Below are positions 2,159 to 6,070 of a DNA stretch of 6,070 nucleotides, piece by piece (position 1 is the first letter of the stretch; each line of letters begins with the position of its first letter). Source of the DNA: Nanobdellati archaeon. GTDB lineage: Archaea; Nanobdellota; Nanobdellia; UBA10117. Under the pieces are notes generated by a model. It searched no databases and had not been told where the DNA came from. It was given only the letters and a program-made list of their open reading frames with translations. Location: NCBI GenBank assembly GCA_016182015.1, contig JACOYC010000007.1:1-6070 (forward strand). The letters run 5' to 3'. The position numbers and the translations under genes are program-made.

Positions 2159-2175
2159 CTAATATGAAATATTAG
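2159..2175 (-). terminator. AT-rich hairpin just 3' of tRNA-Asp (possible 3' processing or termination element)
   Basis: CTAATAT-GAA-ATATTAG forms a perfect 7-bp inverted repeat abutting the tRNA-Asp discriminator base (2177). Confidence 0.3.
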
Positions 2176-2176
2176 G

Positions 2177-2461
2177 CGCCTGAGCCGAGATTCGAACTCG
2201 GGTCTGAACCGTTCTGCATGACAACCAAAGTACTTCAGCCGATCGCAGATCGGCTTGCCTTTTCTTTGGGTTGCCGACAAAATCCATTTTGGATTTTGCG
2301 GACACATCTGAACTTTGTTCAGATTGTGCCACGACACCTTTCTTTTTACGACGCAAGAAAAATCCGAAGATTTTTCTGCGCCCAGAAAATGCTTTGCATT
2401 TTCTTGGGAAAGAAAGGGGTTGTGTGACAGGGTTCTATCCTAACCGCTAGACTACTCAGGC
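2177..2461 (-). tRNA. tRNA-Asp (anticodon GUC), intron-containing
   Basis: Exons 2461-2425 and 2211-2177 join to 72 nt: GCCUGAG-UA-GUCU-AGCGGUUA-GGAU-A-GAACC-CUGUCAC-GGUUC-AGAC-CCGAG-UUCGAAU-CUCGG-CUCAGGC-G. Acceptor stem 7/7, T stem 5/5, anticodon stem 5/5; the D stem has two G.U pairs. The 3' trailer is CCU, so CCA is not fully encoded. Confidence 0.9.
2212..2424 (-). other. tRNA-Asp intron, 213 nt, canonical position 37/38
   Basis: C32UGU35 pairs with the intron 3' GCAG. The 3' bulge is AA|C38 and the 5' bulge is C36A37|C. An ACAACC/GGUUGU helix closes the intron, with an extra CAU opposite the 5' bulge, so the BHB is relaxed. The interior is filled with 6-13 bp hairpins and holds no plausible ORF. 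Confidence 0.8.
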
Positions 2462-2484
2462 ATAGCTTTTCGTTTTGTGTGCGC

Positions 2485-2492
2485 TTTTTAAA
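2485..2492 (-). promoter_or_regulatory. TATA box of tRNA-Asp
   Basis: Sense TTTAAAAA lies 24-31 nt upstream of tRNA position 1 (2461). CTAT immediately precedes +1, as it does for tRNA-Tyr. Confidence 0.6.
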
Positions 2493-2512
2493 GTTGAGTC
2501 CCGCCCTCAGGA

Positions 2513-2663
2513 TTTTCTTTATCATCCTTTTTCCTTAGCGCCATCGTAGATGGCGCACGGGGGAATCAGGGTGAGCGTCCCAATCGAACGAAGTTCGATG
2601 TGCGGCAAAATCCATTGGATTTTGATTGCAACCTGAAGGGGGCAGAGCCCCCTTCGGGTCCGT
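2513..2663 (-). other. tRNA-Tyr intron 2, ~151 nt, inside the T-loop (about 59/60)
   Basis: The T arm is split: UCAGG-UUCAAA ends at 2664 and U-CCUGA-GGGCGGG-A resumes at 2512. A-runs on both sides make the boundary ambiguous by up to ~4 nt. The interior has the hairpins GAAGGGGGC-TCT-GCCCCCTTC, CAAAATCC-AAT-GGATTTTG, ATCGAAC-TTC-GTTCGAT and GCGCCAT-CTACG-ATGGCGC. I could not draw a clean BHB by eye. Confidence 0.65.
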
Positions 2664-2685
2664 TTTGAACCTGAAACCTTCCGGG

Positions 2686-2723
2686 TTCTGAGCGCATATT
2701 GCTTGCCTAGCGGCAAGTGCTGT
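2686..2723 (-). other. tRNA-Tyr intron 1, 38 nt, at or near 37/38
   Basis: Sense sequence is ACAGCACTTGCCGCTAGGCAAGCAATATGCGCTCAGAA, with an internal hairpin CTTGCC-GCTA-GGCAAG. The 3' end UCAG pairs with C32UG (U35.U mismatch), followed by the bulge AA|C38. The boundary is ambiguous by +/-1 nt. Confidence 0.7.
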
Positions 2724-2783
2724 CTACAGCCAGACGCTCTACCAGGTTGAGCTAGGGCGGGATAGATAGTGCTGCATATTTGG

Positions 2784-2806: not shown

Positions 2807-4213
2807 TTATTCCTTCGTAGAAATCTTTCCAAGCACAGAAACAGTGTTGGATGCAACTGCCTTTGCCTTGCCGTTCTCTGTCTTGAATTTTACGTGCGCG
2901 GCAGGCAACCTAATCGCCCCAACAATACCAAGAGAGGTTCTCAAATCATAAGTCAAAACCCTTTCCTCGCCAGGATATAAAACATCAAACTTCCAGCTTA
3001 GCCTGATGTGCCCGCCTTCCTTCTTTATCACGCTCGGGTTCATTGTACCATAATCGCTGCCCGGTTTTAGCGGCGTGGCAATCACATCTGTAACAGTAAC
3101 GTTCGGCACCTGCTTGCCCGCCAGTGATTTTACAACAAGCTTAACCTTCAGGCTCTTTGGCCCTTTTATTACTGATTTCGTAATGCTAAACTCGGCGCCG
3201 TAATATTTTGATAATGTATAAACGCCGGCGATGAGTAATATTAAAACAACGGCCAGCCATGCGTAAGATATTGTGTAAGCCATGGTTGTGCTCTGGCCGG
3301 GAGAAAGCGAATACTGCCAGCCAGCCACAAATCCGCCGCTGTCACCGCTTAATTTCTCTGCTTCGGGTTTCGAAAAAAAGAACGCGCGCTGCCAAGACGG
3401 AAGCAAAACTGTATGTGTGCCAACCGCATCGATATTGCCTTTGTTTGTCAGCGTGATTGTATATTTTGTGCCGAGGAATGCTCCGGAAGTATCTGTTTTG
3501 GAAACCACATTTTCGGAAGACAAAACCTGAAACCGCTTGCTCTGCTGAGAAACAAGTTTGCCGGCCGAATAAATCGAAACCACATTCTTGTAGTTGCCTG
3601 GCTTTACGTCAGAGTCTATTGTTATGTCTTTCTGCAGAACCAGTTTGGCCTCGCCGGAGGCCAGCTTGCCAATTGTAAAGTCAACCGGCTGGAACAAATC
3701 GCTGCTCAACTTGCCTGTCAGGCCTGCCGCTTCATCCTTGCCGGAATTTTTAACGATCAGATTTATTTTGTAATCGCCAGGCTTTATCTTACTCTCCAAA
3801 TCTATTGAAGAATCAATATGCGGCGGTTCTGTGAGGACAGTTATCTTAACCAGCACCGATGTCTGCACTTTTGGGTTATTGCAGGCCTTTGCAGTCACTT
3901 CAATCGCGTAGGTGCCGGCATAAACATCTGCCGGCGGCGTGATTCTAAGTTCGGCAGATCTTGCGGAATTTGCAGGTATATCTAAAATATAATTATCAAA
4001 GTAGGCTGTCCCCCAGCCTGGCGCCGAAAGGCAGAATCTGTCGAACTTTGCCTGATTATTACCGACTGTAATGCCGTATTTTGCAGAATCTGTGTAAGAA
4101 ACAGCACCGACCACTGCATTTTGCGTCATAACAACATCAGAACCTGCATGCGCGATGGGCAAACCGAGAACAAGTAACAAAAGACTAATGATGATTATGT
4201 GTGGCCAGCGCAT
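2807..4213 (-). CDS. Secreted, membrane-anchored protein with CARDB/Ig-like beta-rich repeats
   Basis: The track ORF 2807..4222 starts at a TTG; the first ATG is at 4213-4211 (MRWPHIIIISLLLLVLGLPIAHA|GS), which reads as a classical signal peptide. Segments such as RITPPADVYAGTYAIEVTAKA, INLIVKNSGKDEAAGLTGKL and YTITLTNKGNIDAVG resemble CARDB/NEW3-type Ig-fold repeats. One TM helix lies at track residues ~316-337 (YTISYAWLAVVLILLIAGVYTL), followed by a K-rich segment and a ~125-aa C-terminal beta-rich domain. Confidence 0.85.
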   Translation of the reverse strand: MRWPHIIIISLLLLVLGLPIAHAGSDVVMTQNAVVGAVSYTDSAKYGITVGNNQAKFDRFCLSAPGWGTAYFDNYILDIPANSARSAELRITPPADVYAGTYAIEVTAKACNNPKVQTSVLVKITVLTEPPHIDSSIDLESKIKPGDYKINLIVKNSGKDEAAGLTGKLSSDLFQPVDFTIGKLASGEAKLVLQKDITIDSDVKPGNYKNVVSIYSAGKLVSQQSKRFQVLSSENVVSKTDTSGAFLGTKYTITLTNKGNIDAVGTHTVLLPSWQRAFFFSKPEAEKLSGDSGGFVAGWQYSLSPGQSTTMAYTISYAWLAVVLILLIAGVYTLSKYYGAEFSITKSVIKGPKSLKVKLVVKSLAGKQVPNVTVTDVIATPLKPGSDYGTMNPSVIKKEGGHIRLSWKFDVLYPGEERVLTYDLRTSLGIVGAIRLPAAHVKFKTENGKAKAVASNTVSVLGKISTKE

Positions 4214-4242
4214 GTTTATCAATTATGTTAGTGAATAATTAG

Positions 4243-4250
4243 TATATAAA
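4243..4250 (-). promoter_or_regulatory. TATA box of the surface-protein gene
   Basis: Sense TTTATATA lies 30-37 nt upstream of ATG 4213. This predicts a near-leaderless transcript starting around 4220. That argues against the TTG at 4222 as the start codon. Confidence 0.5.
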
Positions 4251-4307
4251 TGTTTCTAGATCGCATAATGAGCAATCCACAATGATATATGGTGAGGCTG
4301 CGCAGAT

Positions 4308-4464
4308 TTGTTCCGCACATCGGGATTTGCGGGATTGTTAAATCCCGCTGTTTTTCTTTTTGGGTTCCCAGGAGCCTTTTTCTTTCCAGAGCCGAATGAA
4401 ATTCGGCTTGGCCAAGAAAAATGCCGAAGCATTTTTCTCTGGTTTTAAAAGAAAAAGGGTGCTG
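4308..4464 (-). other. tRNA-Pro intron 2, ~157 nt, inside the T-loop (56-60)
   Basis: CGCAG-UUCAA ends at 4465 and AU-CUGCG-CAGCCUC-A-CCA resumes at 4307. Read without splicing, the local T-loop would be AACAAAU, which lacks U54 and U55. The exact boundary is ambiguous by ~2 nt. It contains the three-way-junction module at 4375-4458. Confidence 0.65.
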
Positions 4465-4484
4465 TTGAACTGCGGTCACACCCA

Positions 4485-4583
4485 TTCTGGTAAAGACATC
4501 TTTTGTGCGATTGAAAATCGCACTTTTCTTTCTTTAGACGCCCAGGAGCGTTTCTTTCTTTTTAAAAGAAAGAAAAGCTGCTG
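4485..4583 (-). other. tRNA-Pro intron 1, 99 nt, at or near 37/38
   Basis: The sense strand starts CAGCAGC and ends CCAGAA. CCAG pairs with U33GG35 (A32.G mismatch), followed by the bulge AA|U38. It contains CTTTTCTTTCTTT...AAAGAAAGAAAAG (+ 4523-4577) and the hairpin GTGCGATT-GAA-AATCGCAC (+ 4505-4523). The boundary is ambiguous by +/-1 nt. Confidence 0.65.
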
Positions 4584-4638
4584 CCCCATGGGCGTAGCCT
4601 ACCAAGCTAGCCGACAGCCCCGCTAAGAATTTATTTAT

Positions 4639-4663
4639 AGCTTTAAAAGTTCTTTTACTATTT
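4639..4663. repeat. 25-bp exact direct repeat, copy A (tRNA-Pro promoter region)
   Basis: AGCTTTAAAAGTTCTTTTACTATTT is identical to 4751-4775. Confidence 0.9.
4641..4648 (-). promoter_or_regulatory. Candidate TATA box of tRNA-Pro
   Basis: Sense TTTTAAAG lies 20-27 nt upstream of G1 (4621), slightly closer than for the other two tRNAs. It sits inside the 25-bp repeat that duplicates the adk 3' end. Confidence 0.4.
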
Positions 4664-4720
4664 GTACAGCCCCCTTTCTTTGGGAAAGAAAGGTGCTCTA
4701 CGAAACCACCAAAGAAACCT

Positions 4721-4739
4721 GTGCGATATTCTATCGCAC
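4721..4739 (-). terminator. Hairpin 8 nt downstream of the adk stop (terminator-like, or a cassette of the intron hairpin family)
   Basis: GTGCGATA-TTC-TATCGCAC has a perfect 8-bp stem. In the adk sense it is followed by AGGTTTCTTTGG. The same stem occurs in tRNA-Pro intron 1 (4505-4523). Confidence 0.4.
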
Positions 4740-4746
4740 TAAATTT

Positions 4747-5457
4747 TTACAGCTTTAAAAGTTCTTTTACTATTTTTTCAGCATCTGCTTTTACGCTACT
4801 AACGTCTTTTTCCGCATTGACTGGTCTAAACGCGGCGGAATATGTTCTGCGCATGCTTTCCACCATTGGCCATGTCTTCTTATCATACTCACGTATCGCA
4901 TTCGCAAACATGTCGTAATTAACATCTTCCTGCCTGATGTAAAGCCCGCCCCCGCAGGCATCACATCTGTCCGCAGTTTTTGGCGGAGAAAACTTAACAT
5001 GATAGACTAAACCGCATGGCCTGCAGCTCCTTCTTCCCTTGGCCCGCTCAAACAATGTATCGTCATTCGCAATGTCAAGGTAAAGCACTGCATCAAAATC
5101 AATCTCCCATTTCATATGTCCGTTCACGCGCTCGAACATCCTTTCGAGAAAATCCAGCTGTCCAGTAGTCCTTGGGTAGCCAACCCAAAAAGCAACCGAG
5201 CCCGGCTTCATTGCAAAAAATTGATGCTCGACAAGGGAATTCATGTACGGATCCGGAGTAAGGCTTCTGTCTGCATCAAAATGCTCTGCGACTTTTCCAA
5301 GCAAAGTCCCGTCGCGCTTGCCTGCCCGCAGCAAATTTCCGGTTGCGATATGCTGCGAGTCCGGTATTTGTTTGAGTAAGTGCTGCAGAACAGTGTCTTT
5401 GCCCGAGTAAACAGCGCCAATTATAACCACATTCTTAACTGGTTTAAGTTCAGCCAC
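4747..5457 (-). CDS. adk: Adenylate kinase, long form with a four-Cys zinc LID
   Basis: Motifs: GAVYSGKDT (P-loop; compare GxPGxGKGT), HIATGNLLRA (compare IStGdlLRa), GYPRTTGQ (compare GfPRTxxQ), LID GRRSCRPCGLVYHVKFSPPKTADRCDACGGGLYIRQEDV (CxxC...CxxC), and IREYDKKTWPMV. The start is GTG at 5457; the next in-frame Met is residue 72, after the P-loop. GAGGT (+ 5463-5467) lies 5 nt upstream. Confidence 0.9.
   Translation of the reverse strand: MAELKPVKNVVIIGAVYSGKDTVLQHLLKQIPDSQHIATGNLLRAGKRDGTLLGKVAEHFDADRSLTPDPYMNSLVEHQFFAMKPGSVAFWVGYPRTTGQLDFLERMFERVNGHMKWEIDFDAVLYLDIANDDTLFERAKGRRSCRPCGLVYHVKFSPPKTADRCDACGGGLYIRQEDVNYDMFANAIREYDKKTWPMVESMRRTYSAAFRPVNAEKDVSSVKADAEKIVKELLKL
4751..4775. repeat. 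25-bp exact direct repeat, copy B (last codons of adk)
   Basis: AGCTTTAAAAGTTCTTTTACTATTT is identical to 4639-4663. Here it encodes the adk C-terminus (...KIVKELLKL). Confidence 0.9.
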
Positions 5458-5489
5458 AGCTTACCTCTAAAAGCAGATAAAACAGTGAC

Positions 5490-5499
5490 TATAAAAAAA
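5490..5499 (-). promoter_or_regulatory. Candidate TATA box / T-run between the kinase gene and adk
   Basis: Sense TTTTTTTATA lies 33-42 nt upstream of the adk GTG and 14 nt downstream of the TAG (5515-5513) of the upstream gene. Confidence 0.45.
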
Positions 5500-5512
5500 T
5501 ATCTGTGCAAAA

Positions 5513-6070
5513 CTAAACGAATTTCCCAACTAAAACATCAATCTTGGAATAAAGCTGCATAAGCGAGCCAGATGCATCAATCACATAATCTGCCTGCGCG
5601 AAAACCCTTTTCAGATGAAACTCTTTTTCCTCCCTTTTTTCTAGAGCGAGGAACTCTGGCCAGTAGGCTGGATCTCCCGGCCGGCCGCGCTTCTTCATCC
5701 GCTCAAAACGAATTTTTGCGGGCGCAGTCACAAATACTAGTTTTGCCTTGTGCTTAAAATATTTTTTAACAACTTTTACATCGGATGCCAAGCGTATGCC
5801 ATCAATGCAAACCTTTTCGTCGCCATCATTCTCTACTTTCTGAATTATCTTTCTTATAAAATAATTTGTCCCGTACTTATTTCTCAGCCGCTCGGAAAGT
5901 TTTTCCAGATTCTTGCGGTTGGAGCGTATGCGCCTTTTTCTTGCCTCAGAGCGGATGTAGTCAGAAACTGTGTGCTTGTGAAATTTATATTTTTTTTCCA
6001 AATATTCGGCAACAGTCCCCTTGCCAGCCCCGATATCTCCAACTAAACCTATGACTGTGCGGATGGCCAT
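5513..6070 (-). CDS. P-loop nucleotide/nucleoside-kinase-like protein (dephospho-CoA-kinase / archaeal UPF0200-like)
   Basis: 185 aa. The ATG falls exactly at the window edge (6070-6068). A Walker A motif, GLVGDIGAGKGTVAEYL, sits at residues 8-24. VCIDGIRLASDV resembles the xIDGvRsxxEv segment of small archaeal NMP-kinase-fold proteins. The P-loop lying so close to the N-terminus supports this ATG as the true start. The specific substrate is not assignable by eye. Confidence 0.8.
   Translation of the reverse strand: MAIRTVIGLVGDIGAGKGTVAEYLEKKYKFHKHTVSDYIRSEARKRRIRSNRKNLEKLSERLRNKYGTNYFIRKIIQKVENDGDEKVCIDGIRLASDVKVVKKYFKHKAKLVFVTAPAKIRFERMKKRGRPGDPAYWPEFLALEKREEKEFHLKRVFAQADYVIDASGSLMQLYSKIDVLVGKFV

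Follow-up and report, generated by a model that had tools for sequence, protein, structure and literature searches.

We analyze here the junction between the adenylate kinase gene (adk) and the tRNA-Pro(GGG) gene in a 6,070-nt stretch of archaeal DNA (the window, the source contig of which is ~6.1 kb), where every gene lies on the minus strand. At this junction there is a direct repeat of 37 nt (4634-4670 versus 4746-4782), with 34 of the 37 positions identical (92%) and a spacing of 112 nt, and the interval between the two copies is occupied exactly by an insert that is a degenerate copy of a family of tRNA introns. The insert reads on the plus strand, i.e., opposite to every gene of the window and inverted relative to tRNA-Pro and its own introns.

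The repeat and the ancestral junction

The repeat reads GCT GAA (A/C)AA ATA GTA AAA GAA CTT TTA AAG CT(G/A) TAA A. Its core is the exact 25-mer at 4639-4663 and 4751-4775 to which the original prediction had drawn attention, for which the chance expectation is 0.00 in 200 shuffles. The distal copy supplies the conserved C-terminus of adk (...KIVKELLKL*, which aligns with the relatives P0002 and P0003) and the stop codon TAA at 4747-4749 (minus strand), and it retains an intact box, CTTTTAAAG in the sense direction at 4761-4753, that resembles the B recognition element (BRE) and TATA element of archaeal promoters. In the proximal copy the promoter box keeps its ancestral spacing, with TTTTAA lying at -27..-22 from the tRNA-Pro start, the identical position as in L004, one of the relatives described below. 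The pseudo-codon CAA (Gln) of the proximal copy matches the Gln of L005 adk (AEQIV), and therefore the adk homology extends through GCTG. Judging from the intact TATA box of the distal copy, it is possible that a longer pre-tRNA-Pro is also made, with a leader of ~110 nt containing antisense-intron sequence.

Two relatives have the same synteny of adk, tRNA-Pro and the secreted-protein gene. One is L004 (adk 75% identical), which comes from the same genome as L009, GCA_053535855.1, and is the closest relative having the adk/tRNA-Pro junction; the other is L005 (adk 56% identical), from Candidatus Woesearchaeota archaeon nzgw42. The adk stop is followed by 13 nt and then tRNA-Pro in L004, and by 17 nt and then tRNA-Pro in L005, with neither the repeat nor the insert present at the junction of either. 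Compared with these relatives the window junction carries 112 extra bases, and deleting one repeat copy together with the intervening DNA (112 nt) gives the stop, 13 nt and the tRNA, which is the L004 layout. A comparison of this junction in related genomes had been recommended along with the original prediction, and its outcome is that the repeat and the segment are not ancestral.

In both L004 and L005 a box GAGCTTTTAAA(T/G) lies inside the last adk codons (E-L-L), and (A/G)(A/G)CTTT(T)AAA is present at -31..-22 in all five of the tRNA genes examined. From this position and conservation the box is very probably an archaeal BRE/TATA promoter. Because the predicted box sits in the last codons of adk, the adk 3' end doubles as the tRNA-Pro promoter, and in the window it is the proximal copy that is predicted to bear the working promoter box of tRNA-Pro. 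No TATA-like box is found within the 55 nt upstream of the distal GGGGCTGT. We also considered whether this distal GGGGCTGT is a true 5' exon followed by an intron at 8/9; this was rejected because there is neither an upstream TATA nor an evident bulge-helix-bulge (BHB) motif, and it is also ruled out by the proximal start, which yields a complete tRNA.

These relatives place the lineage of the window in DPANN/Woesearchaeota, and a neighbouring protein of the window is 94% identical to one named 'DPANN group archaeon'. No closer relative bearing the junction was found in a genome scan by adk alone, a profile scan gave L005 only, and a metagenome scan for relatives of the adk junction gave only L006 (adk 25% identical), which was taken as a negative control. 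In L007, where the neighbouring protein is 94% identical, the sequence begins 45 nt upstream of the neighbouring gene and the junction is not included. The coordinates of the features are collected in Table 1.

Table 1. Features of the window, with those of the adk/tRNA-Pro junction given first
Feature	Position	Strand	Remarks
Insert	4671..4745	+	75 nt; degenerate copy from the ~100-nt tRNA-intron family, inverted and truncated at its 3' end
Hairpin m1	4673..4693	+	CCTTTCTTT-GGG-AAAGAAAGG; perfect 9-bp stem; aligns with m1 of other members
Hairpin m2	4721..4739	+	GTGCGATA-TTC-TATCGCAC; perfect 8-bp stem
Distal repeat copy	4746..4782	-	last 11 adk codons, stop, 1 further nt
Proximal repeat copy	4634..4670	-	non-coding now; sense TTTTAA at 4648-4643
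Residual ancestral spacer, adk stop to tRNA-Pro +1	4622..4633	-	13 nt counting 4634, as in L004
adk (adenylate kinase) coding sequence	4747..5457	-	open reading frame; Pfam ADK (PF00406) and ADK_lid (PF05191)
tRNA-Pro(GGG)	4290..4621	-	exons 4621-4584, 4484-4465, 4307-4290
tRNA-Pro intron I1	4583-4485	-	99 nt, position 37/38
tRNA-Pro intron I2	4464-4308	-	157 nt, T-loop; nested 57-nt hairpin module 4442-4386
P-loop kinase	5513-6070	-	
471-aa secreted-type protein	2807-4222	-	
tRNA-Tyr(GTA)	start 2761	-	rebuilt by hand
tRNA-Asp(GTC)	2461-2175	-	ARAGORN with introns allowed

The insert and the tRNA-intron family

A hidden Markov model (HMM) of the family was built from five introns of tRNA-Pro and tRNA-Asp, with the insert left out, and was searched with nhmmer against ~43 kb of loci, which is the scope of the family search. 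A match spanning model positions 4-88 of 99 is obtained for the plus strand of 4667-4748, with E = 2.8e-8 (E = 3.7e-9 when the window is searched alone), and this is the sole match outside tRNA genes. The match overruns the insert at both ends owing to microhomology at both junctions. Local alignments of 4662-4750 were also made with every intron of the window and of the relatives, each tried in both orientations. Here the insert, read on the plus strand, was colinear with the sense strand of I1 (score 26) and with the L005 tRNA-Pro intron (26.5), with the scores for the remaining introns and orientations being only 7-15.5. In 2000 dinucleotide shuffles the score never came to 26 (mean 8.7, standard deviation 1.6).

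Along the insert, hairpin m1 (pyrimidine/purine) comes first and is followed by a GCTC spacer and an AAAGAAA tract, then by the 8-bp hairpin m2 and lastly by an A-rich tail. Of 48 permutations of module order and orientation, the actual one scores highest. Thus, where the original prediction had two hairpin cassettes landing separately, there is one colinear copy, inverted, of nearly the entire family intron. The hairpins themselves are as predicted: m2 differs from the hairpin at 4505-4523 (GTGCGATT-GAA-AATCGCAC) by one compensated closing pair, and both m1 and m2 are kept across the family by compensatory changes. The 14-mer TTGGGAAAGAAAGG is also really shared with the Asp intron, being found at 2404-2417 and 4680-4693, and it reflects the pyrimidine/purine hairpin of the family. 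What is borne out is the more general point that intron-type sequence occurs here outside any tRNA, and hence is not confined to tRNA introns, with the insert lying between the repeat copies.

The description of the duplication has also to be modified. The proposal of ~65 extra bp within a 52-nt unit is recast as 112 extra bases made up of the 37-nt repeat and the 75-nt insert; for the unit itself, the part comprising the adk 3' end and the tRNA-Pro promoter stands, while the part comprising the first 8 nt of tRNA-Pro is not needed, for CAGC plus the 5' end of the family suffices. It is true that there are exactly two copies of the 8-mer ACAGCCCC (4614-4621 and 4666-4673), the expectation being 0.08 per window. 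Its CAGC belongs to the adk repeat (GCT GAA giving GCTG), and ACAGCC(C) is the 5' end of other members, which read ACACAGCC in L005 and GACAGCCC in the T-loop intron of L009 tRNA-Asp. The 8-mer may be explained more simply as CAGC, from the repeat or microhomology, joined to CCCC of the family 5' end. At the other end of the insert, the distal CTAAATT aligns in the profile alignment with the family tail after m2.

The identity of the insert to every known family member is 52-64%, and to the adjacent I1 it is 54%. The 3' end of the family consists of a 4-nt helix strand followed by 2 nt (CCAG-AA, CCAT-AG, ACAG-AA; by eye), and this 3' splice-site segment, at model positions 89-98, is missing from the insert. 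The insert sits between the adk stop and the tRNA-Pro promoter with no flanking exons, and it lies on the wrong strand; it is not a functional intron. It probably has no function of its own. On inspection no terminal inverted repeats are seen at its ends (the flanking duplication being 37 nt), there is no open reading frame in the 75 nt between the repeat copies, and no C/D-box motifs are seen by eye in I1 or in the insert.

Members of the family are present at position 37/38 and in the T-loop of the window tRNA-Pro, in L005 tRNA-Pro, and in L009 tRNA-Asp and tRNA-Tyr. When the nested 57-nt module is removed from I2, the remaining 100 nt are colinear with I1 and the L005 tRNA-Pro intron. I1 (4485-4583, minus strand) is 89% identical to the 37/38 intron of L009 tRNA-Asp (L009:1898-1993, minus strand). 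The T-loop intron of L009 tRNA-Asp and the D-loop intron of L009 tRNA-Tyr also belong to the family. In the same genome, GCA_053535855.1, tRNA-Pro has only a 15-nt intron, at 37/38. The occurrence of a nearly identical intron in Pro and Asp genes points to recent intron transposition or conversion in a DPANN lineage. As for a transposed intron, the insert matches introns of distinct tRNA genes, but its location is intergenic and its orientation inverted. The grouping threshold used by Fujishima in 2010 is reportedly >70% identity; the 52-64% of the insert falls below it, and other members reach 89%. Around the intronic copies no long target duplications are found, only 3-4-nt junction repeats by eye.

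It is noted that the 57-nt composite module (4386-4442) is nested in the m1 loop of I2, and that related modules are nested in the corresponding position of the D-loop intron of L009 tRNA-Tyr (L009:2905-2975). One hairpin of this module, AGAAAAATGC-loop-GCATTTTTCT, recurs together with its flanks, apparently inverted, in the spacer between tRNA-Tyr and tRNA-Asp of L007 (L007:1723-1753; 27 of 31 nt), a second case of intron-type hairpins beyond tRNA. In total the window has 19 perfect hairpins with stems of 7 bp or more and loops of 3-6 nt, 15 of them in tRNA introns and two in the insert, with the remaining two being one that abuts the tRNA-Asp 3' end and one within a coding sequence. The strictly Watson-Crick stems and the one-step compensated pairs suggest that the palindromes are maybe maintained or generated at the DNA level.

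The boundaries of the introns, and with them the sites of BHB cleavage, are predicted from reconstruction of the mature tRNAs. The three tRNA genes of the window (Pro, Tyr and Asp) all escape default ARAGORN and Rfam (E<=1), the single Rfam match at this threshold over the window being a spurious internal ribosome entry site, and with introns allowed ARAGORN finds tRNA-Asp alone, with an intron of about 212-213 nt. The tRNAs rebuilt by hand fold, once spliced, as canonical cloverleaves; for tRNA-Pro the cloverleaf is complete without the insert. A reading of 'TGGGCGT' within I1 as the genuine 3' half of the anticodon stem was rejected, because only splicing to the TGGGTGTGACC exon, which is common to L005 and the window, gives a cloverleaf. 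The conserved family motif CTCCTGGG is what is seen here: in I1 at window 4534-4546 (minus-strand sense CTCCTGGGCGT), the motif CTCCTGGG(C/A) imitates the 3' strand of the anticodon stem of tRNA-Pro, the real 5' strand of which is its partner in the minimum-free-energy fold. Based on this modelled fold, the mimic could compete with or guide the folding of the pre-tRNA. Since default finders and Rfam miss these tRNAs, tRNA sets of DPANN are likely under-annotated. In DPANN lineages tRNA sets have been described as heavily disrupted and incompletely predicted (PMC5829648).

Three further observations concern the neighbouring genes. Between L007:1490-2035 and window 2175-2761, the introns of tRNA-Tyr and tRNA-Asp are very different and are much shorter in L007, with tRNA-Asp having three short introns in L007 versus one (about 212-213 nt) in the window; as judged by this pair, intron content would turn over much faster than the flanking genes. 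In L009 a fragment of the tRNA-Tyr 3' end (CTGAGGGCGGGACTC) lies directly upstream of tRNA-Asp (L009:2110-2135 and 2755-2775, minus strand), with the complete tRNA-Tyr ~620 nt farther, small open reading frames between, and the Tyr-Asp block inverted relative to the window. This arrangement has the appearance of an insertion accompanied by duplication of the tRNA end. Finally, the region upstream of the gene of the 471-aa protein (4233-4262; L004:3440-3470; L005:4636-4662), with sense TTTATATACTAATTATTCACTAAC, is nearly invariant, and the 471-aa-type proteins of the same three genomes are only 72-84% identical. This strongly conserved stretch may be a promoter or a 5' leader.

Explanations for the origin of the junction

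Because the insert lies exactly between the 37-nt copies, one insertion with target duplication is the simplest reading, and we consider it reasonably probable that the region is the scar of a single off-target insertion of intron-derived DNA that duplicated its target. In the ancestor, the adk stop would have been followed by 13 nt and tRNA-Pro, with the BRE/TATA box GAACTTTTAAAG embedded in the last adk codons. About 75-85 nt of the hairpin-rich ~100-nt intron family, which would be mobile among the tRNA genes of this DPANN/Woesearchaeota lineage, would then have been inserted in inverted orientation just after the adk stop. With 37 nt of the target (the last 11 adk codons, the stop and 1 further nt) duplicated on both sides, the distal copy would still end adk and the proximal copy would still hold the TATA at -27..-22. 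An insertion can be tolerated where coding and promoter functions overlap because the duplication keeps both; without it, either tRNA-Pro would have been cut off from its promoter or the end of adk would have been changed. The duplication would have made the event survivable and would have uncoupled two formerly overlapping functions.

For the mechanism, two scenarios can be considered, namely microhomology-mediated template switching, with two switches, or capture at a staggered break. The two junctions have 4-nt microhomologies, CAGC and TTTA. An event at the DNA level is suggested because the copy is antisense to the known transcripts, lies outside tRNA and has microhomology at both junctions, and the donor would be an unsampled family member elsewhere in the genome. 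The anatomy of the region, the homology of the insert to the introns, the ancestral state and the preserved promoter spacing are shown by the comparisons given above, and from them we infer one event, not several.

Several points weigh against this reading. The 37-nt target duplication far exceeds what transposases normally make. The 8-mer ACAGCCCC is identical to the reverse complement of the tRNA-Pro start, with a naive expectation of only 0.08 per window, which fits the 52-nt unit of the original prediction, as does the gapped alignment of the distal CTAAATTTTTAC to the proximal spacer CTAAGAATTTATTTAT. Between the insert and any known family member the identity is just 52-64%, and a donor copy did not turn up in the loci searched. 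The mechanism is drawn from a single locus, with no second example with target duplication found in the loci searched; a second promoter duplication was looked for in the L007 Tyr-Asp spacer, where the score of 7.5 is not significant versus the shuffle mean of 8.1.

Some of these points would be accommodated if there had been two events, i.e., if a tandem duplication of 52 nt via GCTG microhomology, running from the adk 3' end across the spacer and through the first 8 nt of tRNA-Pro, had come first, and ~65 nt of intron-type DNA had later entered the upstream unit precisely at its pseudo -1/+1 boundary. The exact 8-mer and the gapped alignment are what this pathway calls for, and the junction GGGGCTGT/ACAAATAG is the expected product of slippage between two GCTG sites. 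Simple tandem duplication by itself does not describe the locus, where 75 nt of intron-family sequence separates the 37-nt copies, so that a second step is required, and the insertion must hit the boundary of the 8-nt pseudo-tRNA stub exactly, which is a coincidence. Moreover, the family profile (positions 4-88) already covers both the 8-mer and the CTAAATT tail, other members start with ACACAGCC or GACAGCCC in tRNA contexts unrelated to tRNA-Pro, and GCTG(T)ACAAATAG also continues the adk homology, GCT GAA CAA ATA, with Gln as in L005. With these considerations, we regard the two-step pathway as unlikely, though not negligible.

A wider reading, to which we give only a low probability, is that the family is a DNA-level mobile palindromic element that inserts anywhere and survives mainly in spliced tRNA introns and harmless spacers. 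If this is true, the survival in tRNA introns would be owing to removal by the splicing endonuclease, the copy between adk and tRNA-Pro would be the first direct footprint of archaeal BHB intron gain, and the insertion signature that it preserves would consist of either orientation, a long duplication of the target and microhomology at the junctions.

It is improbable that the insert is of local origin, i.e., that a fold-back template switch copied I1, which lies ~100-180 nt away on the other strand, and the copy has since diverged. Such a donor is close by, two template switches classically yield an inverted orientation with a direct duplication on the flanks, and CAGC and TTTAC microhomologies are present at the ends of I1. 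I1 is, on the other hand, no closer to the insert (54%) than are introns of other genes and genomes (52-64%), the 92% identity of the flanking repeat suggests an event more recent than the divergence between the insert and I1 implies, and I1 itself has the look of a recent acquisition or conversion, given its 89% identity to the Asp intron of another genome.

A function for the insert is very unlikely, whether as a plus-strand intron-like small RNA, transcribed independently from the near-palindromic TATA box in the proximal repeat as far as the T5 run at 4744-4748, or as a hairpin terminator or leader for adk or tRNA-Pro. Such a function would agree with the perfect state of both hairpins, one with a compensated pair, with the resemblance of the plus-strand AGCTTTAAAAG to the tRNA promoter box, the family copy beginning ~20 nt downstream (by eye), and with the folding of the region, which is better than that of shuffles (z = -2.9). 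By contrast, both L004 and L005 are without the insert, Rfam gives no match, and perfect stems are equally expected of a recent copy from a hairpin-rich donor.

Two independent Logan contigs, L001 and L002, which carry adk, both stop at 4688 inside hairpin m1, and this could be due to strain variation or to a coverage or graph break at the palindrome. Apart from these two ends, nothing favours an assembly artefact or chimera, which is hardly credible because the Logan assembly L003 from another run (SRR12113384), answering the check for such an artefact recommended with the original prediction, is 100% identical across 4393-5591, through repeat and insert, and because the repeat and intron copies are diverged, where a collapsed or chimeric assembly would yield exact copies.

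Relation to known systems and meaning for intron spread

In Thermoproteales, tRNA introns transpose between tRNA genes (Fujishima et al. 2010, via PMC4033280). According to that account, highly similar BHB-type introns occur there in evolutionarily distinct tRNA genes at different positions, and the same is seen here, where I1 is 89% identical to the L009 tRNA-Asp intron and copies are present at 37/38, in the T-loop and in the D-loop. Unlike the Thermoproteales case, the lineage here is DPANN/Woesearchaeota, the introns are long (~100-157 nt) and built of perfect hairpins, and one copy is outside tRNA, inverted and flanked by a 37-nt target duplication. To our knowledge, such features are undescribed for Thermoproteales introns.

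A second comparison is with the tRNA-fragment duplications at the integration sites of archaeal mobile elements, with pNOB8/SSV-type integration (Sugahara et al. 2012, PMC3293823). In both cases direct repeats beside a tRNA gene flank inserted DNA and the tRNA gene stays functional. Here, unlike in integrated elements, only 75 nt lie between the repeats, no integrase or other recombinase is encoded there, the inserted DNA is intron-derived, and the repeat consists of the promoter and the adk end, without tRNA sequence.

The layout of duplication, insert and duplication, with an insert from a multi-copy hairpin-rich family, also resembles that of insertion sequences and miniature inverted-repeat transposable elements. 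It differs from them in that the duplication is 37 nt versus the typical 2-15 bp, the insert has no evident terminal inverted repeats and the other copies reside in tRNA introns. We know of no transposase for this family. Template switching at microhomology, as in fork stalling and template switching (FoSTeS) and microhomology-mediated break-induced replication (MMBIR), gives complex duplications with inverted templated insertions. The locus is similar in that a direct duplication flanks an inverted templated segment, with the 4-nt microhomologies at both junctions, and differs in that no donor template was found in the loci searched. We know of no demonstration of template switching in archaea for such sequence. 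A literature search of incomplete coverage gave no description of this hairpin-built intron family, nor of an intron-derived copy outside tRNA with target duplication.

Transposition of archaeal tRNA introns has so far been inferred from similar introns in different tRNA genes, with no insertion footprint described. At the present locus the extra-tRNA inverted copy, the target duplication and the microhomology point to copying at the DNA level, not to reverse splicing into a transcript. The locus would thus be a rare footprint of intron spread, giving a concrete signature for genome-wide searching, and it would illustrate that an insertion into DNA shared by the end of a coding sequence and a promoter can be rescued by duplication.

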